DNA from: Candidatus Omnitrophota bacterium
GTDB lineage: Bacteria; Omnitrophota; Omnitrophia; Omnitrophales; Aquincolibacteriaceae
NCBI GenBank assembly: GCA_043732705.1
Contig: JAYTHE010000002.1
Coordinates: 191,608-255,607 of the forward strand
Direction: 5' to 3'
Length of the DNA stretch: 64,000 bases
In this document: in pieces, positions 2,389-64,000 of the stretch
Numbering within the stretch: position 1 is the stretch's first letter
Layout of the letters: each line of letters begins with the position of its first letter
Notes under the pieces: model-generated
The model's database searches: none
What the model was told of the DNA's origin: nothing
The model's input: only the letters and a program-made list of their open reading frames with translations
Translations under genes and position numbers: made by a program

Positions 2389-4596
2389 ATGTCACGTTTT
2401 ATTTGTCTTGTTCTCACCATTTTTTTAATTTCATTTTCCGCCCAAGCACGGGAAACTCAAACTACTGCGCCTGTTTCCACGATATCCAAAGAAGATATCG
2501 AAAAACCGAAAGACCCTGAAAATACAATTTATGTATCGGCGGCGCGTTTGCCGGTTTTAAAGCAAAAGCAAAGCAGCTCCTCGTCCAATGTGACCTTTAT
2601 TTCCAAAGAAGAATTAAAAGCAAAAAAATCCTCTTCGCTTCAAGATGCGTTGGTGTCACAGGAAGGCGTTGTGCTTTATGACGATGTCGGAAACGGCCTC
2701 GATTCAACTTTGAGTTTGCGCGGTTTTAACCGGGCGAGCGCGGTTACTTTTTTGGTGGATGGCGTGCGTGTCAATGAAATTGACGGAAATACAATGACCT
2801 TTCCGCTTGTCTCGATGGATGATTTGGAAAGCATTCAAATTGAGCGTGGCTCTTCTGCCGCAGTGTATGGCTCGAATGCCCTGGCGGGAGTGATCAGTAT
2901 TACCACGGGACGTCCCAGCAAAAAGCCATGGAGTTTATTCGGCGGATTTGATGTGGCGAGCCATCGCGGAATTCATTTTTATCAGGGTGTCAGCGGAACG
3001 GTTCAAGACCATTTCACTCCGCTTGGCGGGGCTTTTGAATATTATTTCAAAGGCGGACGAAATCTGGGCGAAGGTTTTCGCGGGAATTCCGAATTCCGTA
3101 TCACGTCCTTTGACCTTAAAACCGCCTATGTTTTGCCTGAGAATTCGGGGAAGGTTTATATCAACGCGAAACATACCGATGACATGATTTCTAATCCGGG
3201 CGAATTAACACGATTGCAATATGATGCTTCCGCGAAACAGACTAATAAGCCTTCAGACGCGCGTCAGTTTAGAAATACCATTGTTCAAATCGGCGCTGAT
3301 AAAAAGTTTTGGGATAATAAAATTACGGCATCACTTATGGGTGACTGGCGTTTCAATAGTCTTGATTTTGTTAATACGACGACGCAGTTCGGAACAAACA
3401 CGACTTTGGTGCAGTCCAAGTCGCGTACGCCCGAGCTTATCGGACAGCTTTCGTATGAAGATGCATGGGATTGGCTTACCAATACCAGTTTGATTGGTTT
3501 TGAAGTGCGTAAGACTTATGAGCTGGCCACGCGTATTGCCGCTCCGGGCGGGGCAGTTTCTCCCACGGCGGCAACATCGCTTGACCGCGACGGGCATTTT
3601 TTTAACTCCGCGCTTTTTTGGAATGAGCGCCTGGGATTGACTAAGTACGCAGATGTGAATGTGGGCATGCGGCATGATCATTACACTTTAAGAACGCTGA
3701 ACCCTAAATCTCCTTCGAGCAATTATTCGGGACGCTGGAATGATAATACGGTATCGACCGGCTTAACATTGCATCCGCTTAAATCAACCGACGTTTTTTT
3801 TCAATTTTCCCAGGGCTTTCGAGTCCCTAATTTGAGCGATGTGAATCCTTTTGCCGGTTCCACGCCGCCTGATTTTTTAAAACCTGAAACCAGCAATCAA
3901 TACGAGGTCGGAACCCGTTATGCTTTCGGCGATATTTTGAAATTGCGCGCAAGCTGGTTTTTAATCGATATGCAGGATGAAATCGTGAATGACACGAACG
4001 CTGTTTCTCCGACGAATCCGTTCGGCCAAAATATCAATGTCGGCAAAAGCCGCCGGCAGGGAATCGAAACGGGAATGGAAGTCAAACCGCTGCGGGAAGT
4101 TTCTTTTTTCGGGACATACACTTTGACGCATGCTTATGTGCGTGAAACCAATGTGGATGCTTTCGGAGGACAAATTTATGACGGCCGAGATTTGGGGCAA
4201 GTACCTCAAAACAGAATGACCTGGGGCACGGAAGTTAATCCTTTAATTCGTTTAGGAGAGCCTTTTGCCGGCCTCAAATTTCGCGTGGACGGTAATTTTA
4301 CCGGGCAACAGCACCCGCAAGGCTTTGAATCCACGCCTCAATCTTATTTGGACGCCACCGGCGGCGCAGGGCATGTGATCAAGTCTTTTACTTTGTGGAA
4401 TTTTCTGGCAAGTTATACGTTTAAAAAACAGGAAATCTACTTTAAGATTAATAACATGTTTGATAATAAATATTATTCTCGGGCTGTTGTTTCTGAGATT
4501 TTTGCTCCTGGAACTTACCCCGCCGGTATTGATACTTTTGTGAATTCCGGTGCGCCGCGCGAATATCTTATGGGAATGCGCTGGGAAATTGAATGA
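2389..4596 (+). CDS. TonB-dependent outer-membrane receptor, BtuB-like (vitamin B12/cobalamin)
   Basis: Signal peptide, a TonB-box-like ENTIYVSAARL, a plug domain (LRGFNRASAVTFLVDGVRVNE, SIQIERGSSAAVYGSNALAGVISITT) and a long beta-barrel. It heads an operon with btuF/C/D-like genes and cobO. Confidence 0.85.
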   Translation: MSRFICLVLTIFLISFSAQARETQTTAPVSTISKEDIEKPKDPENTIYVSAARLPVLKQKQSSSSSNVTFISKEELKAKKSSSLQDALVSQEGVVLYDDVGNGLDSTLSLRGFNRASAVTFLVDGVRVNEIDGNTMTFPLVSMDDLESIQIERGSSAAVYGSNALAGVISITTGRPSKKPWSLFGGFDVASHRGIHFYQGVSGTVQDHFTPLGGAFEYYFKGGRNLGEGFRGNSEFRITSFDLKTAYVLPENSGKVYINAKHTDDMISNPGELTRLQYDASAKQTNKPSDARQFRNTIVQIGADKKFWDNKITASLMGDWRFNSLDFVNTTTQFGTNTTLVQSKSRTPELIGQLSYEDAWDWLTNTSLIGFEVRKTYELATRIAAPGGAVSPTAATSLDRDGHFFNSALFWNERLGLTKYADVNVGMRHDHYTLRTLNPKSPSSNYSGRWNDNTVSTGLTLHPLKSTDVFFQFSQGFRVPNLSDVNPFAGSTPPDFLKPETSNQYEVGTRYAFGDILKLRASWFLIDMQDEIVNDTNAVSPTNPFGQNINVGKSRRQGIETGMEVKPLREVSFFGTYTLTHAYVRETNVDAFGGQIYDGRDLGQVPQNRMTWGTEVNPLIRLGEPFAGLKFRVDGNFTGQQHPQGFESTPQSYLDATGGAGHVIKSFTLWNFLASYTFKKQEIYFKINNMFDNKYYSRAVVSEIFAPGTYPAGIDTFVNSGAPREYLMGMRWEIE

Positions 4597-5450
4597 ACAA
4601 TAGTACCCGAGGCCCGAGGCCCGAGACCCGAGGGTTTCGGGAGCAGAACTTCTGGTTTGGGGCTTTGCTGGCATTATCAATATTGCTTTCTTCGAACTAT
4701 TCTGTTGCTGCCGCGCGCGTCGTTTCTTTAAACGCCTGTACCGATGAGCTTTTATTGCAGTTTGCTGAGCCGCAGCAAATCGCGGGTGTCACTCATCTTC
4801 TGCATTCACCGCAAAGCGAGGCTGTGCTTGACGATCATCCTGAAATTTTAAAATTATCCGGGGATGCCGAAAGAATTTATAAAATTCGTCCATCGATTGT
4901 TATTGCTGGCCCTTTTTCCAATCCCCAAACGCTTGAGCAGTTAAAACGAGCGCATATCAAGATTTTAATTTTTAGAGACCCGGGGAATTGGGAGGATTTA
5001 CTGCAAACGGTAAAATCTTTGGAGGAGATGCTCGGCACAACGCCGCAAATGGCGCTTTTCAGAAGAAATATTTTAAATTTAAACCTTCATGGCCCGGATT
5101 CTCAATGGGCCAGAAAGCGCGCGTTGTTCTGGAGCGCTGCCGGCCATGTTCCTGGCCGCGGCACATTTGAAAATACGATTCTTCAAACATTCGGAATGCG
5201 AAACGCGGTGAATTATGAAGGCTATGCTTTTCTTTCGCTTGAGAAGCTAATTCAGCTTCAGCCCGATATTATTATTGTGACTGAAGGCCCGAATCAAAGA
5301 AATTCCTGGAATCATGATACGCTTTTCCATCCCGCTTTGCGCGCGGCATTGCCGCATTTGGAATATATGCAAATTCCGGAAGAAGCAGTCAGTTGTGCTT
5401 CGGGTTATACCGTCGAAGTTTTAGAAAATCTTTTAAAGGGCAAGGCATGA
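4593..5450 (+). CDS. Periplasmic substrate-binding protein of an Fe-siderophore/cobalamin ABC transporter (BtuF/FecB family)
   Basis: RVVSLNACTDELLLQF ... IRPSIVIAG ... PDIIIVTEG pattern typical of class III SBPs. Its start overlaps the receptor stop (ATGA). Confidence 0.75.
   Translation: MNNSTRGPRPETRGFREQNFWFGALLALSILLSSNYSVAAARVVSLNACTDELLLQFAEPQQIAGVTHLLHSPQSEAVLDDHPEILKLSGDAERIYKIRPSIVIAGPFSNPQTLEQLKRAHIKILIFRDPGNWEDLLQTVKSLEEMLGTTPQMALFRRNILNLNLHGPDSQWARKRALFWSAAGHVPGRGTFENTILQTFGMRNAVNYEGYAFLSLEKLIQLQPDIIIVTEGPNQRNSWNHDTLFHPALRAALPHLEYMQIPEEAVSCASGYTVEVLENLLKGKA
4604..4641. repeat. Heptameric GTCTCSG-type tandem repeat, copy 1 (reverse orientation, in the btuF-like N-terminus)
   Basis: CCCGAGGCCCGAGGCCCGAGACCCGAGGG. 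Encodes RGPRPETRG. Confidence 0.8.
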
Positions 5451-27359: not shown

Positions 27360-30300
27360 ATGAAAAAACAATCTTCTTTTTTCCGTCGTTTAGTAAGCTT
27401 AGTTACGACACTATTGATTTCTTTTTCAGGAACTCCCGGTTTCTCGGCACCTTCTAGCTCGGATTCTGTCGTGCTTTCTGCGCACGCTTTTTCAAGTTCT
27501 TTAGCTAGTGAAATATTACAAATTCCGCGTCAATTGGGGCGTGTGGAATCTTTTCATGCGGGCAAAGGCAAAACGTTGATTCATATTCAAACCGCGCATG
27601 GCCATTATGAGGCGCAGAAAAAAATCGCCGCAATTTTGCAGGATCTTGAAAATCAATATGGAACAACCACCGTTTTTATTGAAGGCAGCTGGGGGAAACT
27701 TTATCCTGAGATTTTGCGATTTTTCCCTGAAAATCCAAAACTGACGCATGAGTTGAATGACGCCCTCACACATAAGGCGATTGTTAAAGGCGAAGAGCTT
27801 TATTTGATTGATTCGAAAAAAGGTGAAGGCTATGGAATCGAGAATGAACAGGCCTATCTTGAAAACGCAGCGGCATTTGCAAGCGTGGTTAAGGCGCGTG
27901 AAGGCAGTCGGAAATTTTTAACCGCTGCCATGGATGGCATTGAAAAAATTTCAGCCGGTTATTTGAATAATGATTTGCGTGGTTTTTTGCGGCGTGAGGA
28001 GAGCTTTCAAAATGGTGTTACTCCGCTTGATTCTTGGATTGAAGAATTACATAAACAGGTTACAAAGCAGTATGGTCAAGATTTGGCCGACGCTGCCTTT
28101 CAGTTGGAATGGCCCATGCTCGTACGCTATTTTACGATCAAAAAACTTGAATCCTCGATGAATGTTGAAACGCTTGATTCAGAACGGGTTAGTTTTTTAA
28201 AAGAGTTTGATAAAGTCTCTAGTCTCCGGTCTCCAGTCTCCGGTCTCAAGGATTCAATAGAATCCTTGCTGAGCGCCAAAGACGCTAGCCTGGGGTTACA
28301 AGCCGAAATGGTGCAAAGCATTTTTATCCAAATGATGCGAGCCTTGCCCCAGGATTTTGATTACAGTCGCTATCCCAATGTGAAGGCAATGATCGGCATT
28401 TTACTTTTACAAAGTGAGCTTGATGCGCACCTGATGACCGCGGAAATAGAGAAATTAACAAATCTTCTTGCCGGAAAAATGGCAACGCAGGCGACTGAGA
28501 AGCAATTTTTATCGGTTTATCAACGTAAAATTTTGCTTACGAAATTACTTAATTTAGAATTAGCGCCTGATGATTACGAGAAAATTCTCGGGTCTCCGGC
28601 CTCCGGCCTCCGGCCCAGTCATTTATTTTTAGAAATTCAGAAATTAAATACCGAAAACCGTGTCCGTGGAATTGAATTTAAGCATACGGCCGAGTTAGAT
28701 GCGATTTATGAGAAGGCGTTGGCTTTTTATGCGGGTGCGAAAAAGCGTGATCAATATTTAATTGAGAATGTTGAGAAACAAATGGATCAGCTGGGGGTTG
28801 ACAAAGCAGTTGTGATTACGGGTGGTTTCCATGCTGAGCCGTTCCGCAAATACTTTGAAGCGAAAAATTACACTTATGCGCTTCTGATGCCGACTCTTTC
28901 AAGTGTTGATGATAAAGGTCGTGAGGCTTATTTGAATGTTATGAATGAGCAGCTAAAGATTAAAACAAAAACATCTACCGCTAATACAATATCGCCTGCA
29001 ACGCGGGCTGGTGTCTCAACTTTGGAGGCTGGATTAGCTTCTTTGAGTTCGGAGGATGGCAATTTAGCCCTTGCAGGTGTGGAGCGATCAGAATCCCGTC
29101 TTCTATCACTGAGAGCTAAAGCATCGACTTATATTGCGGCTGTATTGTTTGCGTTGTCTTCGGCGTCTCCTGTTTCTGCACAAACACGACGAGTGCTTCC
29201 CGTTGTTCCTTCTGACGCTACAGCGCAACAAGCGGCGTTTGATAAATATATGGAGACAGCTGATGATGGAAAACTAGCCGCGTCGTTTGCCTCTTTTGTG
29301 GAGAAAAAAAATGCCCCTGCTTATTTATTATTTTCATATGCCAAAGCTGCCGCAAAGCAAGGTCGACAAGAAACGGTCGTTAGGCAGCTCGGATTAATAA
29401 TCCAATATTTAGTTGACGCGTATCAATTTAATGAAGCTGATCTTAGAAAAGTTTTAGAGGCGCTTGATTCTAATCCTGAGATCCGTCAAAACAGCGGGGT
29501 GGTTGCTGCTGTTAAATCAATAACGTCACTTGTACCTAAAGAGCTTGTTGGATCGTCGGAGCAGAAGAAAGAAAAACCAGTTGCTTCTGTGATAATAAGG
29601 GCAGAAGGAGGCAAGGGTTTAATTTTAGGACCATCTGAGACGGTTACTGAAAAATCAACAGGTGAAGAAATTAAACTTACCGGAATTCAAAAAGGATCTC
29701 CCGAGGAACTGCTTTTCAATCAGTTTTTTAATGGCGGTGACGTTGTGCAGCCGGGTGGAGTCAATCCAAAGGATGCTTCAAGGGTAAAATTTTCATTACA
29801 GGCATTGGCTCAAATTCACGAGCTTGCACCAGAAAAAAGAGTCCAATTTGTCAAGTCAATGTTCGACTTGTTACCCGCCATGAAGCCGGCATTACCAAAT
29901 GAGAAGGAATTCAAAGAAATAAAAAGAATCACACTAAGTGAATTGGCGAACACTTTTTACTTATTTAAGTTCCCGCCGTCGGCAATTAGTTTTTTTTTAA
30001 ATGAATTGGTCGCCCCCAAAAATAGTTCTCTTGTTGCGGATCCTTTTTTCAGGCCTTATGTATTAGCTTTAGTTTCGGAGTTGGTTGATCAATTGTCCAT
30101 GGACTTACTCGAGTATAAGAAGTGGGCTCAGTCTGTCCTTATAAAAGAATATGAGGTGTTTATCGCCAAATTTGCTGATGATGCGATCCGCAAGGTTTTA
30201 GTAGCGCCTGAGGAAGCGTTAGGTCCCGACACGCGAATGTGGTATATGCGTATGACAGGCGTTCTGTTGAGTGCGCCTAACTTTATTGATCCATTTGTTA

Positions 30301-31451
30301 AGGTCGCACCGCTTGCGCCATCCGTCGGTGGAGGGGACCGAAAATATATTGAGAATAGTAAGGCAGTGGATAGATTTTCACAAATGGTACCTACATCTAG
30401 GCTAAGAAGCTTTATTCTAAATTACTTTGTACTGCAATTCCAAGATAAGGATCTATTGAAAAAAATTTCAAAACGGACAGATCCACGAAAATTCATGCCA
30501 CTTACAACAATAATTAATGCTTTTGTTGTAACTCAGGATCCGAAAGTACTTCAAGAAATGGAAAAAATTTCGACAATCGTAGATTTGCCCGAAAGTTTGC
30601 GAACGGTTGTTGTAGCTAAAATTGTAGAGTTGAAGTTTGGAATTTCACAAAAAAAGGCGAAGGAGAAACGATCTGAGATGCGGGATGCAGTTGCAGATGA
30701 TTTTTTGCTGCCGCAAGGCCCCACGATTGATGTGGCGACGTTGAAACGAATGGCAGAAACATTTAAAGCCGGAATTTATTCCTTGGCGGCGAAGGTAGTT
30801 GCAGGGATGGGTTTTCAGCCTAAGTCACTGATTCTTCCGACCGTAGATTCTATCTTACCGCTTCCGCAAGATGTGTCGAGTTTAGGAGGAAATGTTGTTT
30901 CTATTTTTACGCCTGATAATGCAAAAGCAGAAGCTAAGATCGTCATCGCGCAAAAATTTTCAGCTTTCCCCGAGGCAACATCTGATTTTAAGCAGCTTCT
31001 TTCTTGGGCAAGATATATAGCTAGCCACAAAGGGTTGGTTTGGAGCTTTCAGGTTACACAGTCGCAGGAAGCTTCCGCGAGGAGCTTTCGTCAGATGTTT
31101 TTGCAGCTAGCAAGTCAGAATGGATTGCAAATTTCGCAAAATCAAATTTTTTTGGAACGTGTTCCTGCAGGTGTTTTTAATTTGTCTAAATTTGCCAAGC
31201 TAGACCTCGCCGCGATTGCCCCGGATGCAGCTGTCCTGAGCCCTTTAAATGTGGGCATTAAAGGGCGTGTTATTTTGACAGCAGCTGACGGCATCGATGG
31301 TCTTGCTGCCGGCTTGATCGTTACAGCAGAAGCTTTACTGTCGCCTCTAGGATTTCCTCAAAAGGTGGTTCGTGCAAGTGAGCTGCACCCTTTTGGTTTG
31401 GACTATCAAGCAGTTCTTATGGCCGTAGCTGCGTTTGCAAGAGCTGCATAA
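27360..31451 (+). CDS. Giant secreted protein (1363 aa), function unknown
   Basis: Signal peptide (MKKQSSFFRRLVSLVTTLLISFSGTPGFSA). One uninterrupted ORF with a Rho-independent terminator after it. Two in-frame heptameric repeat blocks. A second hydrophobic segment at about aa 570. Weak GTxH/GxFH resemblance to the TraB/GumN/Tiki fold in the N-terminal 500 aa. Confidence 0.7.
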   Translation: MKKQSSFFRRLVSLVTTLLISFSGTPGFSAPSSSDSVVLSAHAFSSSLASEILQIPRQLGRVESFHAGKGKTLIHIQTAHGHYEAQKKIAAILQDLENQYGTTTVFIEGSWGKLYPEILRFFPENPKLTHELNDALTHKAIVKGEELYLIDSKKGEGYGIENEQAYLENAAAFASVVKAREGSRKFLTAAMDGIEKISAGYLNNDLRGFLRREESFQNGVTPLDSWIEELHKQVTKQYGQDLADAAFQLEWPMLVRYFTIKKLESSMNVETLDSERVSFLKEFDKVSSLRSPVSGLKDSIESLLSAKDASLGLQAEMVQSIFIQMMRALPQDFDYSRYPNVKAMIGILLLQSELDAHLMTAEIEKLTNLLAGKMATQATEKQFLSVYQRKILLTKLLNLELAPDDYEKILGSPASGLRPSHLFLEIQKLNTENRVRGIEFKHTAELDAIYEKALAFYAGAKKRDQYLIENVEKQMDQLGVDKAVVITGGFHAEPFRKYFEAKNYTYALLMPTLSSVDDKGREAYLNVMNEQLKIKTKTSTANTISPATRAGVSTLEAGLASLSSEDGNLALAGVERSESRLLSLRAKASTYIAAVLFALSSASPVSAQTRRVLPVVPSDATAQQAAFDKYMETADDGKLAASFASFVEKKNAPAYLLFSYAKAAAKQGRQETVVRQLGLIIQYLVDAYQFNEADLRKVLEALDSNPEIRQNSGVVAAVKSITSLVPKELVGSSEQKKEKPVASVIIRAEGGKGLILGPSETVTEKSTGEEIKLTGIQKGSPEELLFNQFFNGGDVVQPGGVNPKDASRVKFSLQALAQIHELAPEKRVQFVKSMFDLLPAMKPALPNEKEFKEIKRITLSELANTFYLFKFPPSAISFFLNELVAPKNSSLVADPFFRPYVLALVSELVDQLSMDLLEYKKWAQSVLIKEYEVFIAKFADDAIRKVLVAPEEALGPDTRMWYMRMTGVLLSAPNFIDPFVKVAPLAPSVGGGDRKYIENSKAVDRFSQMVPTSRLRSFILNYFVLQFQDKDLLKKISKRTDPRKFMPLTTIINAFVVTQDPKVLQEMEKISTIVDLPESLRTVVVAKIVELKFGISQKKAKEKRSEMRDAVADDFLLPQGPTIDVATLKRMAETFKAGIYSLAAKVVAGMGFQPKSLILPTVDSILPLPQDVSSLGGNVVSIFTPDNAKAEAKIVIAQKFSAFPEATSDFKQLLSWARYIASHKGLVWSFQVTQSQEASARSFRQMFLQLASQNGLQISQNQIFLERVPAGVFNLSKFAKLDLAAIAPDAAVLSPLNVGIKGRVILTAADGIDGLAAGLIVTAEALLSPLGFPQKVVRASELHPFGLDYQAVLMAVAAFARAA
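28215..28247. repeat. Heptameric tandem repeat, copy 2 (in the giant ORF)
   Basis: GTCTCTAGTCTCCGGTCTCCAGTCTCCGGTCTC. Encodes SLRSPVSGL. Confidence 0.8.
28588..28615. repeat. Heptameric tandem repeat, copy 3 (in the giant ORF)
   Basis: CTCGGGTCTCCGGCCTCCGGCCTCCGGCCC. Encodes GSPASGLRP. Confidence 0.8.
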
Positions 31452-55625: not shown

Positions 55626-56311
55626 AGACAAGAGATTTTAAGCCGCTTTTAATGGCAATCGTTTTTGCTTTGTTTTGTCTCGGGTCTCCGGTCTCGGGTC
55701 TCCGGTCTGCTTGGGCGGACGATTGGCTTGACGGTGCGAATGGTTACGCGCGCGGAAGCGAGCAGGCAAAATTAAGCGGCAAGCCGATGATGGTTTATTT
55801 TTATACGGATTGGTGCCCGTACTGCCGCAAGTTTGAAAAACACACGCTCTCGAACCCCGATGTTCAAAAAGCATTGTCTGCTTTCATAAAAGTCCGCATT
55901 AATCCGGAAAAAGGAACGCGCGAAAATCAACTGGGCGACCAATATCGAATCGAAGGCTTCCCGTCGGTTTATTTTGAAAATCCGGCCTCCGGTCAGGCGA
56001 CGCAGGAAATGACACGTGCCTTAAAAAGCGCGAAAGACTTTATTAACGCGGCGAATGAGTTTTCAAAAGTCACGCATCCTGCGAAGCTTGAAAAGGCCGC
56101 GGCTCCGGCAGCTGCGGTTGTGCCCGTCCAGCCCGCATCTGTTCTTCCGGCGGTGACCAACGAACAAACGCTTTACTTAAAAAGCGGCCGTACAATTGAC
56201 GGTAAAGTTGTTTCCGAGGACAGCAAGGGGATTACCTTTGCTACTTCGGAGCTGGGCAAGGTTTATTTTTCGCGCGGTGAAATTTTAAAAATTGAAAAAG
56301 AAAAACAATGA
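55622..56311 (+). CDS. Thioredoxin-fold protein (secreted, WCxxC)
   Basis: Signal peptide, then MMVYFYTDWCPYCRKFEK. The heptameric repeat is embedded right after the signal-peptide h-region. Confidence 0.65.
   Translation: MKTRDFKPLLMAIVFALFCLGSPVSGLRSAWADDWLDGANGYARGSEQAKLSGKPMMVYFYTDWCPYCRKFEKHTLSNPDVQKALSAFIKVRINPEKGTRENQLGDQYRIEGFPSVYFENPASGQATQEMTRALKSAKDFINAANEFSKVTHPAKLEKAAAPAAAVVPVQPASVLPAVTNEQTLYLKSGRTIDGKVVSEDSKGITFATSELGKVYFSRGEILKIEKEKQ
55676..55710. repeat. Heptameric tandem repeat, copy 4 (in the thioredoxin-fold gene)
   Basis: TGTCTCGGGTCTCCGGTCTCGGGTCTCCGGTCTGC. Encodes GSPVSGLRS. Confidence 0.8.
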
Positions 56312-60056: not shown

Positions 60057-60275
60057 AACGTCCTTTTCTCAAGGATAAGAGCTTAATAGCCCCGTTCTCC
60101 TTAAGGTAGGCGGCTATTGTATGGAGAAAGAGGGTATTTTCAATGAATAAAAAGCAGGCCTTTGCTGTCTAAATTGTGAGTTTGATGTTTTATTTAGATT
60201 TTACTTGGGATGACTTGTTAGTTTTTAGTATAATTTCAAAATTCCGAAGGCCTTTTCAACTAGGAGTTCGATGTC

Positions 60276-60941
60276 ATGAAAATCCGCGTACTTGTTTTTA
60301 TACTTTTTATGAGCGCTTTAATTTCTTCCGCGTATGCAGCCGAGTATGAGCTTGATTCCGCACACACGGCCGTAACCTTTAAAATCCGCCATTTACTTTC
60401 TAACGTAAACGGAACATTTGACAAGTTTGAAGGGAAGTTTTCTTATACCCCGGATAAACCCGAAGAGTGGAAGGTGGAAGCAAAGATTCAGGCGGACAGC
60501 GTCAACACCCGCAATGAGCAGCGTGACAATCATTTGAAGTCAGCTGATTTTTTTGATGCGATCCACTACCCTGAAATTACTTTTAAAAGTACAAAAGTAA
60601 CAGATTATAAAAAAGGTCACGCTAAACTGCATGGACTGTTGAATATGCATGGCGTTGAAAAAGAAGTGGTCATGGACTTGGAAGTTTTAGGTCTGGAAAA
60701 GGATCCTTGGGGCAATGAGCTTGCCGGTTTCAGCGCAACAACAAAGCTCAACCGTAAAGATTATGGGCTTGTTTGGAATCAGCTGGCCGAGTCAGGTAAG
60801 CTGCTTGTGGGCGAAGAAGTTCAAATTACGATTGATGTGGAAGGTAAAACGATTACTTCCCAGGCTCCTGCAGAAATGGCGGCGTCCGATGCCGCAGAAA
60901 AAGTTCCCGATGATGTTACAACAGAAAAAAAACCTTCTTAA
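60276..60941 (+). CDS. YceI-family periplasmic protein
   Basis: Signal peptide, then YELDSAHTAVTFKIRHLLSNVNGTF ... is the YceI N-terminal signature. Confidence 0.8.
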   Translation: MKIRVLVFILFMSALISSAYAAEYELDSAHTAVTFKIRHLLSNVNGTFDKFEGKFSYTPDKPEEWKVEAKIQADSVNTRNEQRDNHLKSADFFDAIHYPEITFKSTKVTDYKKGHAKLHGLLNMHGVEKEVVMDLEVLGLEKDPWGNELAGFSATTKLNRKDYGLVWNQLAESGKLLVGEEVQITIDVEGKTITSQAPAEMAASDAAEKVPDDVTTEKKPS

Positions 60942-60962: not shown

Positions 60963-61223
60963 ATGAAAACGCAAAATAAAAAGTTTGTAGTTGCTGCGAT
61001 TGCCGGTTTGATGGCGGTTGCGGGTTCTCTTTCCGTTCAGGCGATCGCGCAGGCCGAAGATGTGCATTGCTACGGTGTTAACAAATGCAAGGGTACGGGC
61101 GATTGCGGCGGAAAAGGTACGAGCTGCGCCGGGACAAATTCTTGCAAGGGTCAGGGTTGGGTTACGATGGCTAAAGATGCTTGTCTGAAAATGGATGGCG
61201 GATCATTAGAAGCCAAAGCCTAA
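60963..61223 (+). CDS. Bufferin-like RiPP precursor (DUF2282, six-Cys family) with a Sec signal peptide
   Basis: An 86-aa protein. Signal peptide, then HCYGVNKCKGTGDCGGKGTSCAGTNSCKGQGW ... DACLKMDGG, giving six Cys in the spacing of DUF2282/BufA-type precursors. It lies immediately upstream of an MNIO gene. Confidence 0.6.
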   Translation: MKTQNKKFVVAAIAGLMAVAGSLSVQAIAQAEDVHCYGVNKCKGTGDCGGKGTSCAGTNSCKGQGWVTMAKDACLKMDGGSLEAKA

Positions 61224-61314
61224 GCAAAGCACTCGAGAGATGTAAAAGGAGGGAGTTTATGCTCCCTCCTTTTTTATTTTCACCTAAAATCGATACCAAA
61301 GTTAAAATAGTCGC

Positions 61315-62988
61315 ATGTTAATTCAACCGCGCAATAATTTAGGGCATGGTGTGGGGCTGCGCTCCGAGCATTTCAATGAAATTCTTGAAACCAAACCCAA
61401 GGTTGATTGGTTTGAAGCTATTTCTGAAAACTTTATGGATACGGAAGGGCGCCCTCTCCATATTTTAGAAAAAATTCGCGCGGATTATCCGGTGGTACTG
61501 CACGGAACCTCTTTATCGATCGGTTCCGCGGGCGGTCTGAGCGCTGTTTATTTGGAAAAACTCAAAAAATTAGCTGACCGAATTCAGCCGGCAATGGTAT
61601 CAGACCATTTATGCTGGGCTGATCATGGCGGTAAACGTCTTTTTGATTTGCTGCCGCTGCCTTTCACTGAAGAATCATTGAAGCTCGTTGTTAGGCACGT
61701 TGATCAATTGCAAAGTTTTTTAGGTCGCCGTATTTTGCTTGAAAATGTTTCCGCCTATATTGCTTTTAAACATTCTGAAATGACGGAATGGGATTTTCTT
61801 GACCAGGTCGCGAAGCGAAGCGGCTGCGGTATTTTGCTCGATGTGAATAATATTTATGTGAATAGTTTTAATCACGGCTTCGACCCGCTTGAATATTTGA
61901 ACGGCATATCACCCGAACACGTTTTTCAATATCACATCTCCGGCCATACTGATAAAGGCAAATTTCTTTTCGATACGCATGTCGGTGAGATAATTGATCC
62001 GGTCTGGCAGCTATATGCGACCGCCGTCCGGCGGTTCGGTGACATTTCATCGCTGATTGAATGGGATTCCGAAATCGGCAGCTTGGATCAATTAATTGAA
62101 TTGAATGAAAAAAGCAGAGCCATTGCGAAACAATCTCAGACCGGAGATCGGAGACCGGAGGCCGGAGGGCTAAGAGCTTCCAGCCCTCGTGTCTCGGGTC
62201 TAGGGCCTAAACTTGATCATGTTCAATCCATGTTTGCCTCAGAAATATTGAAGAAATCAAAAACGGCTTTAGCTGAGCTGTTAGAAAAACAGGCCGGTGA
62301 TCCGGGAATTGAACGTGTTGAGGTTTATGCGGAAGGTTATCCGGCGCGCATCCGCGATGCCCTGCTCGAATGTTATCCCGCGATCCATAAAGTTTTAGGC
62401 GAGGGTGTTTTTACGGAGCTGGCGCTTGAATTTGCGGGCTCGCGCAGTTTTGATCATTATAATTTGAGCCGTGCCGCGGATCACTTTCCCGTTTTTTTAC
62501 AGATGAGTTCCCGCAACGAAGAGTTTCCTTTTCTGAGAGATTTGGCGCAGCTTGAAAAATCCGTTCAACGGTCCTTTCATGCCGAAATAAAAGCTTCCGC
62601 GACCGGCGTGGATTTTGCGGAGAAAGCCGCCAGTGACGGTGAAAATGTGGTTTTTCAATTTCAGCCGCATGTTTTTGCCGTGCGTTCATTTTGGCCGATT
62701 CTTGATATTTGGAATGCGCGCAATCTTCCTCCTGATCAAATTAAGATTCAAGTTGAAGGCCGCGCCCAGGCTGTTTTGATTTACCGCCGCGGCGAACAGG
62801 TTGTCTGCCAAAAAGCAGAGGCGCTGGAGGCCGCTATTTTGCAAAGTTTGATGGATGGTAATCCGCTGGGAAAAGCTTTTGATGTGATGACGGAAGCTGA
62901 TGATATGACCCCCGTTCAAGGTTGGTTTTCAAGTTGGCTTGCTAATGGGCTGATTGCTAGCTTTGAGCAGATAGCAGATAGCAAATAG
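61315..62988 (+). CDS. MNIO enzyme (DUF692) fused to its DUF2063 partner (BufB-BufC-like fusion)
   Basis: The N-terminal 270 aa (GHGVGLRSEHFNEIL ... VDWFEAISENFMD ... YPVVLHGTSLSIG ... LLENVSAYI) are the DUF692/MbnB-like TIM-barrel signature. The C-terminal 280 aa have DUF2063-like character. The linker (QTGDRRPEAGGLRASSPRVSGLGPKL) is encoded by the dispersed heptameric repeat. Confidence 0.6.
   Translation: MLIQPRNNLGHGVGLRSEHFNEILETKPKVDWFEAISENFMDTEGRPLHILEKIRADYPVVLHGTSLSIGSAGGLSAVYLEKLKKLADRIQPAMVSDHLCWADHGGKRLFDLLPLPFTEESLKLVVRHVDQLQSFLGRRILLENVSAYIAFKHSEMTEWDFLDQVAKRSGCGILLDVNNIYVNSFNHGFDPLEYLNGISPEHVFQYHISGHTDKGKFLFDTHVGEIIDPVWQLYATAVRRFGDISSLIEWDSEIGSLDQLIELNEKSRAIAKQSQTGDRRPEAGGLRASSPRVSGLGPKLDHVQSMFASEILKKSKTALAELLEKQAGDPGIERVEVYAEGYPARIRDALLECYPAIHKVLGEGVFTELALEFAGSRSFDHYNLSRAADHFPVFLQMSSRNEEFPFLRDLAQLEKSVQRSFHAEIKASATGVDFAEKAASDGENVVFQFQPHVFAVRSFWPILDIWNARNLPPDQIKIQVEGRAQAVLIYRRGEQVVCQKAEALEAAILQSLMDGNPLGKAFDVMTEADDMTPVQGWFSSWLANGLIASFEQIADSK
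62137..62207. repeat. Composite inverted copy of the heptameric repeat forming the MNIO-DUF2063 linker
   Basis: GACCGGAGATCGGAGACCGGAGGCCGGAGGG-ctaagagcttccagccctcg-TGTCTCGGGTCTAGGGCC. The two halves are in opposite orientations around a GAGGGCT/AGCCCTC hairpin. Confidence 0.75.
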
Positions 62989-63037
62989 CCATAAAAAGAA
63001 AGATCGTGTTTCTGCTCAAGGCTATGAGCTGAACTTT

Positions 63038-63424
63038 ATGGATAAATTTAAGATCACTCCTGAAATTCAATTGCGAATCGACAATGATTTTCAATGCCAG
63101 CGCTGCAATGAATGCTGCCACAGGCCGGGATATGTTTATTTGAAGGAGGGTGAGGCGGAACGCATTGCGGAATATTTAAAAATGCCGCTTTATGATTTCA
63201 CGGATCAACATTGCGAAGTAATTGCGCGGCGGCATTTGGTTTTAAAAAAACTTCCTGATGAAACCTGTATCTTTTTGACGGAGGGCGGTTGTTCTATTCA
63301 TGCCGTCAAGCCGGATCAATGCCGCGAATTTCCATACCGTTGGCATACGCCGGCAAGTTGGGATTATTGCGCGGGTTTACGCGCGCTGCGTGATACCATG
63401 GCAGACAAGAAAGAAGGCGTATAA
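63038..63424 (+). CDS. YkgJ-family Zn/Fe-S cluster protein (CxxCxxCC, UPF0153)
   Basis: CQRCNECCHRPGYVYL ... GGCSIHAVKPDQCREFPY. Confidence 0.55.
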   Translation: MDKFKITPEIQLRIDNDFQCQRCNECCHRPGYVYLKEGEAERIAEYLKMPLYDFTDQHCEVIARRHLVLKKLPDETCIFLTEGGCSIHAVKPDQCREFPYRWHTPASWDYCAGLRALRDTMADKKEGV

Positions 63425-63425
63425 A

Positions 63426-64000
63426 ATGCTGCATCATTGGATGGCTCAACTTCTGGTTTTAGCCGCGACACCATGGGGACCCTTTGTTTTAATCATCAAC
63501 GCTTATATTGAAGCGTTTTTCTCGCCGATTCCACATGACCCCGTTTTGATGACTGTGGCTTTGGCTGATCCTAAAAACAGTTTTCTTTATGCCGCGATCA
63601 GCGTGCTTGCCGCTACTTTAGGTATGGCAAGCAGTTATGGGGTTGGGCGATGGGGAAGGAAAACGGCGTTGGTTAAAATTTTTGGCAACCGGCATATGGC
63701 CGAAATCCAGGCGCTCATTTTGCGTTACCAAAATAAGGCCACTTTAGTCGCGCTTTTTACGCCCGTTCCCGACAAGCTTTACTCCATGATGGCGGGGTTG
63801 ATGAAGCTGGACTTTAAAATGTTTATGCTGATTACTTTTATTTCCCGCTTTTTTCGGTATTTTTTCACCGCGACGCTTGTTTTTGTTTATGGCGAGACCA
63901 TACGCAGCTTGTTGATGCATTCCCTGCATTGGATTTTACTGGGCGTGGTCGTAATCGGAGTGGGGCTTTATTTTGCGACCAAATTGTTTTATAGTTTGTT
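63426..64000 (+). CDS. DedA/YqaA-family (VTT-domain) membrane protein, truncated by the window end
   Basis: ATG at 63426. Open to the end of the window, so absent from the ORF track. YIEAFFSPIPHDPVLM and several TM helices. Confidence 0.45.
   Translation, partial: MLHHWMAQLLVLAATPWGPFVLIINAYIEAFFSPIPHDPVLMTVALADPKNSFLYAAISVLAATLGMASSYGVGRWGRKTALVKIFGNRHMAEIQALILRYQNKATLVALFTPVPDKLYSMMAGLMKLDFKMFMLITFISRFFRYFFTATLVFVYGETIRSLLMHSLHWILLGVVVIGVGLYFATKLFYSL

Follow-up and report, generated by a model that had tools for sequence, protein, structure and literature searches.

Bufferin clusters encode a precursor peptide, an MNIO-family maturase (BufB), and a partner protein (BufC). Six-cysteine bufferins (the BUF_6/12Cys or Buf2 family) have been set apart from the four-cysteine DUF2282 (Buf1) family (PMC11626156). 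The buf2 operon of Caulobacter vibrioides lacks DoxX and its expression is copper-induced; in the Buf2 peptide, each of the four central cysteines loses 4.03 Da, and CysI and CysVI escape modification and are probably linked by a disulfide (PMC11626156). In the bufferin papers and the paper on the MNIO landscape, the partner is a separate DUF2063-RRE protein, and fusions are given only for precursors (PMC11626156; PMC12452194). Here, we describe a locus in which BufB and BufC form a single chain. It lies in a 64,000-nucleotide stretch (hereafter the window) of contig JAYTHE010000002.1, positions 191,608 to 255,607, from a Candidatus Omnitrophota bacterium. With a probability of roughly 0.8, it is a genuine three-gene bufferin-2 module, yceI-bufA2-bufBC, in an Omnitrophota-type genome; its thiooxazole chemistry and copper role are assigned by homology.

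The module shares with the buf2 operon of C. vibrioides (bufA2-bufB2-bufC2, CCNA_02999-03001) a six-cysteine precursor, for which a Sec signal peptide is predicted in the window locus, a BufB-type MNIO enzyme, and a DUF2063 partner with an RRE. The absence of DoxX and the order A, B, C are also shared. The window locus differs in that B and C are one polypeptide and yceI precedes the precursor gene. In addition, no SigF/NrsF-type regulator is seen near the locus, and the host is an uncultured Omnitrophota-type bacterium. The bufferin class is already known, and current NCBIfam models would name the locus correctly. Its variant features are the natural single-chain BufBC maturase and the conserved yceI. 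An initial annotation, made from the letters of the window, had located all the open reading frames (ORFs) of the locus correctly.

Precursor and maturase of the module

The bufA2 gene (60963-61223, plus strand) encodes an 86-residue bufferin-2 precursor and lies directly 5′ of the 557-residue maturase ORF. Residues 1-31 (60963-61055) are predicted by inspection to form a Sec signal peptide, with a K-rich n-region, a hydrophobic stretch at residues 8-25, and a cleavage-type site between AQA and ED. This signal-like layout is common to all homologues of the peptide. The 55-residue core (residues 32-86) contains six cysteines, at positions 36, 42, 48, 55, 61, and 74. The six cysteines, the predicted secretion of the peptide, and the position of the gene had all been noted in the initial annotation. 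The peptide scores 74.8 bits against the NCBIfam BufA2 model (NF050166, "BufA2 family periplasmic bufferin-type metallophore"), above the cut-off of 60. The six-cysteine pattern C.G.N.CKG.G.C...C.G.N.CKG.G...C..GG is found beside the maturase in about 70 related loci.

The precursor had been named as a DUF2282 peptide, an assignment that has to be revised. The local copy of Pfam gives no DUF2282/PF10048 match to the 86-residue peptide even at E ≤ 10, and the sole Pfam signal is a sub-threshold match to DUF6520. Because the peptide passes the NCBIfam BufA2 model and not the local Pfam DUF2282 model, its sequence places it in the Buf2 (BUF_6/12Cys) family and not in the four-cysteine DUF2282/BufA1 family. 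A precomputed table, unlike the local scan, assigns PF10048:BufA1 to this ORF, an entry that probably reflects related termini or a newer model. In addition, phmmer matches the peptide to a four-cysteine BufA1 in a related locus, L074, with an E value of 2e-12 (related loci are designated by L numbers). The phmmer match and the table entry indicate that the BufA1 and BufA2 families are related at their termini. L074 (4153-8194) contains two complete bufB/bufC sets, with a six-cysteine BufA2-type and a four-cysteine BufA1-type precursor side by side. Tandem bufA2 copies are present in some relatives (L003 4161-4790; L075 4036-4770; L076 7389-7997).

The bufferin 1/DUF2282 clusters (bufA1BCD, or 'gig' operons) share the enzyme pair, the thiooxazole logic, and related precursor termini with the window locus. 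However, BufA1 has four cysteines and belongs to PF10048, whereas the window peptide has six and lacks a local PF10048 match; an assignment to bufferin 1 was rejected for these two reasons. The buf1 clusters are usually accompanied by DoxX and often by sigma/anti-sigma genes (PMC12452194), none of which is present at this locus.

The bufBC gene (61315-62988, plus strand) encodes a 557-residue single-chain maturase that combines an MNIO enzyme (PF05114, NCBIfam MNIO_BufB) with its partner (PF09836). The MNIO (BufB) TIM-barrel domain spans residues 11-270 (61345..62124) and matches Pfam PF05114 (MbnB_TglH_ChrH) with an E value of 6.5e-102, in agreement with the DUF692/MNIO domain initially annotated in this ORF. 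The NCBIfam MNIO_BufB model (NF050167, "MNIO family bufferin maturase") gives 352 bits against a cut-off of 310. The N-terminal half falls below the cut-offs of the HvfB, ApyH, MbnB, and ChrH models of NCBIfam, and its best Foldseek matches are TglH, 3bww, and MbnB.

Nine residues of this domain, H63, H98, E143, D176, N179, H207, D220, H222, and E249, are invariant in an alignment of 20 fused homologues. In a HMMER alignment with MbnB of Methylosinus trichosporium (7tcr), all but E249 align with H54, H90, E133, D163, N166, H192, D208, and H210 of MbnB, which we take to be the iron ligands of that enzyme. PDB entry 7tcw is the H210S mutant of MbnB. As judged from the conserved ligand positions, the metal site of the BufB half is intact.

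An AlphaFold2 model of the 557-residue fusion, envisaged in the initial annotation, is confident, with a mean predicted local distance difference test score (pLDDT) of 86.8 and a predicted template modelling score (pTM) of 0.83. The pLDDT falls below 50 only at residues 1-5 and 277-294, and the latter, in the linker between the two halves, is the only disordered internal segment.

The C-terminal half is composed of a helical DUF2063 domain and an α/β RRE-like domain. The former spans residues 303-395 (62221..62499, plus strand) and matches Pfam PF09836 with an E value of 3.3e-12, so the DUF2063 partner domain had been annotated correctly. The latter spans residues ~430-552 (62602..62970, plus strand) and is defined by the model and by Foldseek. 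A separate model of residues 296-557 has a pLDDT of 89.9. In Foldseek, this half matches TglI (8hi7_A, E 1e-6) and NGO1945 (3dee, E 1.8e-5), with both sub-domains covered, and shows weak matches to the RRE protein TbiB1. TglI is the partner of the MNIO enzyme TglH, and NGO1945 (PDB 3dee) is a two-domain DUF2063 protein; the matches to these two proteins argue against an origin of the C-terminal half in an unrelated family. A profile search of the PDB reached no DUF2063 structure by sequence, and the relation is seen by fold comparison. According to the predicted structure, the C-terminal half is a complete partner protein consisting of a DUF2063 and an RRE-like domain.

Other MNIO systems are more distant. 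The TglHI and MbnBC heterodimers (8hi7, 7tcr, 7dz9) share the folds of both halves and the metal-ligand positions with the window protein, but they are separate chains, act on other substrates with other chemistry, and are only 12-27% identical. A methanobactin system was rejected: the N-terminal half scores 60.5 against the MbnB model TIGR04159 (cut-off 325), the precursor has a signal-type N terminus, and there is no match to MbnA. The oxazolin proteins HvfB and HvfC likewise comprise an MNIO enzyme and a DUF2063/RRE partner, which install copper-binding heterocycles. An oxazolin system was also rejected, with scores of 239.9 for HvfB (cut-off 360) and 32.9 for HvfC (cut-off 142) and a precursor without EGKCG repeats.

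The single-chain maturase and its linker

A preprint of July 2026 describes an engineered HvfB-HvfC fusion in B-to-C order that is active and outdoes the co-expressed pair (bioRxiv 10.64898/2026.07.17.739211). The natural exceptions named there are only MovX and ChrH (bioRxiv 10.64898/2026.07.17.739211). In the engineered protein, the C terminus of B is joined to the N terminus of C. The window protein has the same topology and is natural; it differs in its disordered linker of ~25 residues. Our literature search, covering open-access texts, found no account of natural BufB-BufC fusions, only precursor fusions and the engineered HvfBC.

Both Pfam domains lie on one ORF, and the initial description of a single polypeptide carrying both domains is upheld. 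The best 120 database homologues are all fused (120/120), with both Pfam domains in 400-625 residues, down to 43% identity. An exhaustive search of the representatives of 50%-identity clusters gave 112 sequences of 480 or more residues among its best 150 matches, counted as fused, and both halves are detected in 92 of these, at identities down to ~31%. A scan of species-representative genomes yielded 36 fused loci and 44 with separate bufB and bufC among 80 (37/81 fused when the window locus is included), and the fused state is kept down to 41-47% identity. The fused architecture is present in well over 100 other assemblies. Fused loci occur mainly in Omnitrophota, with some in metagenome-assembled genomes (MAGs) labelled Planctomycetia or unclassified, and single loci are labelled Terriglobales, Eisenbacteria, Deltaproteobacteria, Holophagales, and Gammaproteobacteria. 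The fusions recovered by a search for this architecture, as proposed in the initial annotation, are common in the lineage and not unusual.

In a neighbour-joining tree of MNIO domains, most fused genes form one large clade, with a few elsewhere, and the subclade of the window is uniformly fused. A split subclade (L012, L029, L032, L041-L044, L054, and L059) is nested inside the fused clade, which suggests a secondary fission of the fused gene or an error of the tree. The pattern indicates that fusion and fission both occurred; the tree is crude, and although one large fused clade is supported, the events cannot be counted from it. In split relatives, bufB and bufC overlap by ATGA or are separated by 3-37 nucleotides, and bufC starts at a P.L..Q motif that in the window fusion follows the linker. 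With such junctions, a fusion requires no more than the loss of a stop codon. Joining the two chains simply fixes a 1:1 BufB:BufC complex.

The initial annotation regarded the fusion as recent, a view that does not agree with a large clade sharing the fused state down to ~31-44% identity across hundreds of sequences. It also allowed for an assembly artefact, a frameshift that hides a stop; in that case bufB and bufC would be distinct genes, with the stop codon masked by a sequencing error within the linker repeat. Heptamer arrays such as those of the linker are prone to error and slippage, and one unit gained or lost shifts the frame. However, the identical 557-residue protein is encoded both in the 256-kb NCBI contig and in a Logan assembly made independently from SRR23617244, fusion is universal among close relatives (64-78% identity), whose linker DNA differs, and the reading frame is continuous, with conserved sequence flanking the linker on both sides. 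Together with the more than 100 other fused assemblies, these observations make an artefact hardly credible. From its distribution among homologous sequences, the fusion is old and common, neither an artefact nor recent.

The interdomain linker (residues 275-296, 62138..62201) is hypervariable in the alignment of 20 fused homologues and coincides with the low-pLDDT segment of the model. It is encoded by a heptamer array at 62138-62167 (AGACCGG × 4.3) and an inverted copy at 62182-62201, with arms of 20 nucleotides that are 80% complementary and can form a hairpin. The stability of the hairpin does not significantly exceed that of shuffled sequence (z = -1.1 to -1.75), and for this reason no selected RNA structure is claimed for the window linker. 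The pattern GGYCTCSGGYCTCS has 13 matches at 5 sites of the window against 0.06 expected, in line with the dispersed palindromic repeat noted initially. The enrichment is derived from a degenerate-pattern count and a tandem repeat scan, an exact-run period-7 test being too strict to inform. Further arrays of the GGYCTCS family are located at 4606-4633, 28214-28247, 28594-28615, and 55677-55708 (plus 55981-55994). All are inside ORFs, and outside the Pfam domain wherever the host protein has one; one host ORF has no Pfam match at all.

The inverted arrays raised the possibility of a recent, repeat-mediated fusion, in which a palindromic repeat inserted between bufB and bufC and removed the stop codon. 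The linker is indeed encoded by arrays of a dispersed family, such elements are also found at the 3′ end of the gene, and in one split relative (L029) similar inverted heptamer arrays straddle the bufB stop codon. Nevertheless, the linkers of the fused relatives point the other way. The linker of L002 contains (GAGCCAC)4 and that of L003 (ACCAAGA)n/(TGGTCCT)n, a pair that folds into a strong hairpin (z = -4.7), and the linkers of L004, L005, and L006 have no heptamer array. Since orthologous linkers carry other, unrelated heptamers or none, the repeat is younger than the fusion. The breadth of the fused clade, at 41-47% identity in the genome scan and ~31% among cluster representatives, also stands against a recent origin. 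Repeat-mediated fusion is therefore very improbable and already contradicted. The repeat did not cause the fusion; it is a passenger in a tolerant, disordered spacer.

Arrays with differing units recur at the junction of B and C and at the 3′ end of the gene. In the window, a hairpin over the last bufBC codons and the intergenic spacer (62956..63029, plus strand; RNA fold z = -2.3) contains an (AGCAGAT)3.4 array at 62966-62989. The equivalent region of L002 contains (TAGCCAA)n/(GCTATGT)n, with z = -4.3.

More generally, tandem arrays of heptanucleotides are dispersed within coding regions of this lineage, outside the Pfam domain where the host protein has one. They are often inverted pairs able to form hairpins, and each genome uses different units (for example, L002 5823-5852, 6647-6727, and 9439-9467; L003 4973-5003 and 5799-5881). 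These arrays resemble the STRR repeats of cyanobacteria. The gain or loss of one 7-nucleotide unit would shift the reading frame. A 1363-residue ORF of the window (27360-31451) has no Pfam match at E ≤ 0.001 and contains two heptamer arrays ~380 nucleotides apart in the same orientation. At 2389-5450, a TonB-dependent receptor gene (Plug and β-barrel) overlaps a Peripla_BP_2 gene by 4 nucleotides, and a heptamer array lies within the first 14 codons of the latter. The pair resembles uptake loci of the metal-chelate or siderophore type.

YceI and the neighbouring genes

The first gene of the module, yceI (60276-60941, plus strand), encodes a secreted YceI-like protein of 221 residues with a lipocalin fold (Pfam YceI, E 1.7e-48). 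Its N-terminal signal-like sequence, read from the sequence, is MKIRVLVFILFMSALISSAYA, followed by AE. A yceI gene is located immediately 5′ of bufA2 on the same strand in 27/30 evaluable fused loci and 14/36 evaluable split loci. The gap between the two genes is usually 10-70 nucleotides, and their adjacency persists in L007 and L076, where the gene order is rearranged. Because of this conserved synteny upstream of bufA2, YceI is regarded as a member of the cluster, which makes its initial description as an unrecognized accessory component plausible. YceI may act as a periplasmic helper in place of the DoxX of buf1 clusters. Members of the YceI family bind isoprenoid or quinone-type lipids. 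In the literature searched, no paper pairs YceI with MNIO or DUF692 in its text; a lone cluster combining YceI with a cytochrome b is mentioned in one supplement.

A sigma-70-like promoter candidate 5′ of yceI (60205..60234, plus strand; TTGGGA-18-TATAAT) matches the consensus at 10 of 12 positions; it is a consensus match only, and the count of such sites in the region is not above the shuffled expectation. Between bufA2 and bufBC, a terminator scan located an intrinsic-terminator-like hairpin with a 13-bp stem followed by a T-run (61244..61273, plus strand). This hairpin is a candidate attenuator that would give an excess of precursor transcript. Scans of the whole window with Rfam at gathering thresholds and for tRNAs gave no matches. 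The G+C content of the window is 43%, and in the genome scan its nearest relatives are Candidatus Omnitrophota MAGs.

Downstream of bufBC, a YkgJ-type CxxCxxCC gene (63038-63424) is followed by a gene for a VTT/DedA membrane protein, which starts at 63426 and runs past the end of the window; both are Pfam-confirmed, and the DedA-like protein has 206 residues in L001 (7748-8368). The stop codon of the former (63422-63424) is separated by one base from the start of the latter, and a fumarase gene then follows. Other neighbours of the locus are hemB and genes for a HIT protein and a HAD hydrolase. When neighbours were clustered across 81 loci, the CxxCxxCC, DedA, fumarase, hemB, and HIT genes co-occurred only in L001-L003, and their linkage is ordinary local synteny. 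The YkgJ-type and DedA genes, initially suggested to be accessories as well, share synteny with the two nearest relatives only, and probably form a unit of their own instead of being bufferin accessories. The same clustering identified no conserved DoxX-like or other downstream gene.

Proposed mechanism and physiological role

Family membership, conservation of the iron-ligand positions, the two-domain fold of the partner, the YceI linkage, and the antiquity and wide distribution of the fusion are established for the window proteins. The mechanism outlined here draws mostly on homology for its chemistry, its metal, and the role of YceI. BufA2 would be made with a Sec signal peptide and held in the cytoplasm by the RRE-like/DUF2063 half of BufBC. 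The multinuclear-iron MNIO half would then oxidise C42, C48, C55, and C61 to 5-thiooxazoles, with a loss of ~4 Da each. The peptide would be exported by Sec and its signal peptide cut after A31. With a disulfide between C36 and C74, the small folded protein would chelate copper in the periplasm. Copper buffering, by analogy with the family, is its likely function.

Several observations weigh against this interpretation of the module. At the level of families, besides the missing local Pfam DUF2282/PF10048 match to the precursor, the C-terminal half matches no dedicated BufC model in the NCBIfam scan, and the HvfC model, aligned to residues 333-516, yields 32.9 against its cut-off of 142. At the level of function, no copper-resistance (cop/cus) or regulatory (sigma/anti-sigma) genes are adjacent to the locus. 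In five relatives (L008, L014, L020, L029, and L044), COX3 and COX4_pro lie directly 3′ of bufBC; they are Pfam-confirmed in L008 (6685-7550) and L020 (6779-7695). This linkage may indicate that copper is supplied rather than buffered, and hints at a tie between this bufferin subfamily and haem-copper oxidases. Finally, operons of the DUF692/DUF2063 type have a role in the resistance of three bacteria to chlorite (bioRxiv 10.1101/072470), which implies that the physiological stress need not be copper.

The functional points favour an alternative in which the biosynthesis is the same but the physiology differs, the product serving to deliver copper to haem-copper oxidases or to counter another metal or oxidant stress rather than to buffer copper. 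The cox genes of the five relatives, the lack of nearby sigma/anti-sigma and cop/cus genes, and the isoprenoid or quinone-type lipids bound by the YceI family would fit such a role. The chlorite phenotype is also compatible with it, and MerC-Buf fusions suggest that other metals are possible (PMC12452194). However, buffering is the only role experimentally shown for Buf1 and Buf2 (PMC11626156), and the cox linkage is found in a minority of loci and is absent from the window. We therefore consider this alternative unlikely and retain a bufferin-2 module with copper buffering as the preferred reading.

A more far-reaching proposal, which we hold only tentatively and with some doubt, is that the locus represents a distinct three-component system in which YceI is an obligatory periplasmic partner of mature Buf2, and in which the arrays at the junction of B and C modulate or switch expression. 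If so, YceI could be a carrier or receptor, or could connect the thiooxazole-copper site with isoprenoid quinones of the membrane or with the assembly of haem-copper oxidases. The hairpin-forming arrays at the junction might pause translation, or 7-nucleotide slippage might switch the gene from a fused to a truncated form and back.

The first descriptions of bufferins date only from 2024-2025, and work on their enzymology is active. An engineered fusion of an MNIO enzyme and its partner was recently needed to obtain a stoichiometric, highly active complex (bioRxiv 10.64898/2026.07.17.739211). Nature offers a large and diverse family of single-chain BufBC proteins, with at least 92 clusters at 50% identity in which both halves are detected. 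Structural and mechanistic work can draw directly on these natural fusions, which also provide a clean marker when genomes of Omnitrophota and related uncultured phyla are mined. In addition, the tight, rearrangement-resistant linkage of YceI nominates it as a candidate third component of the system.

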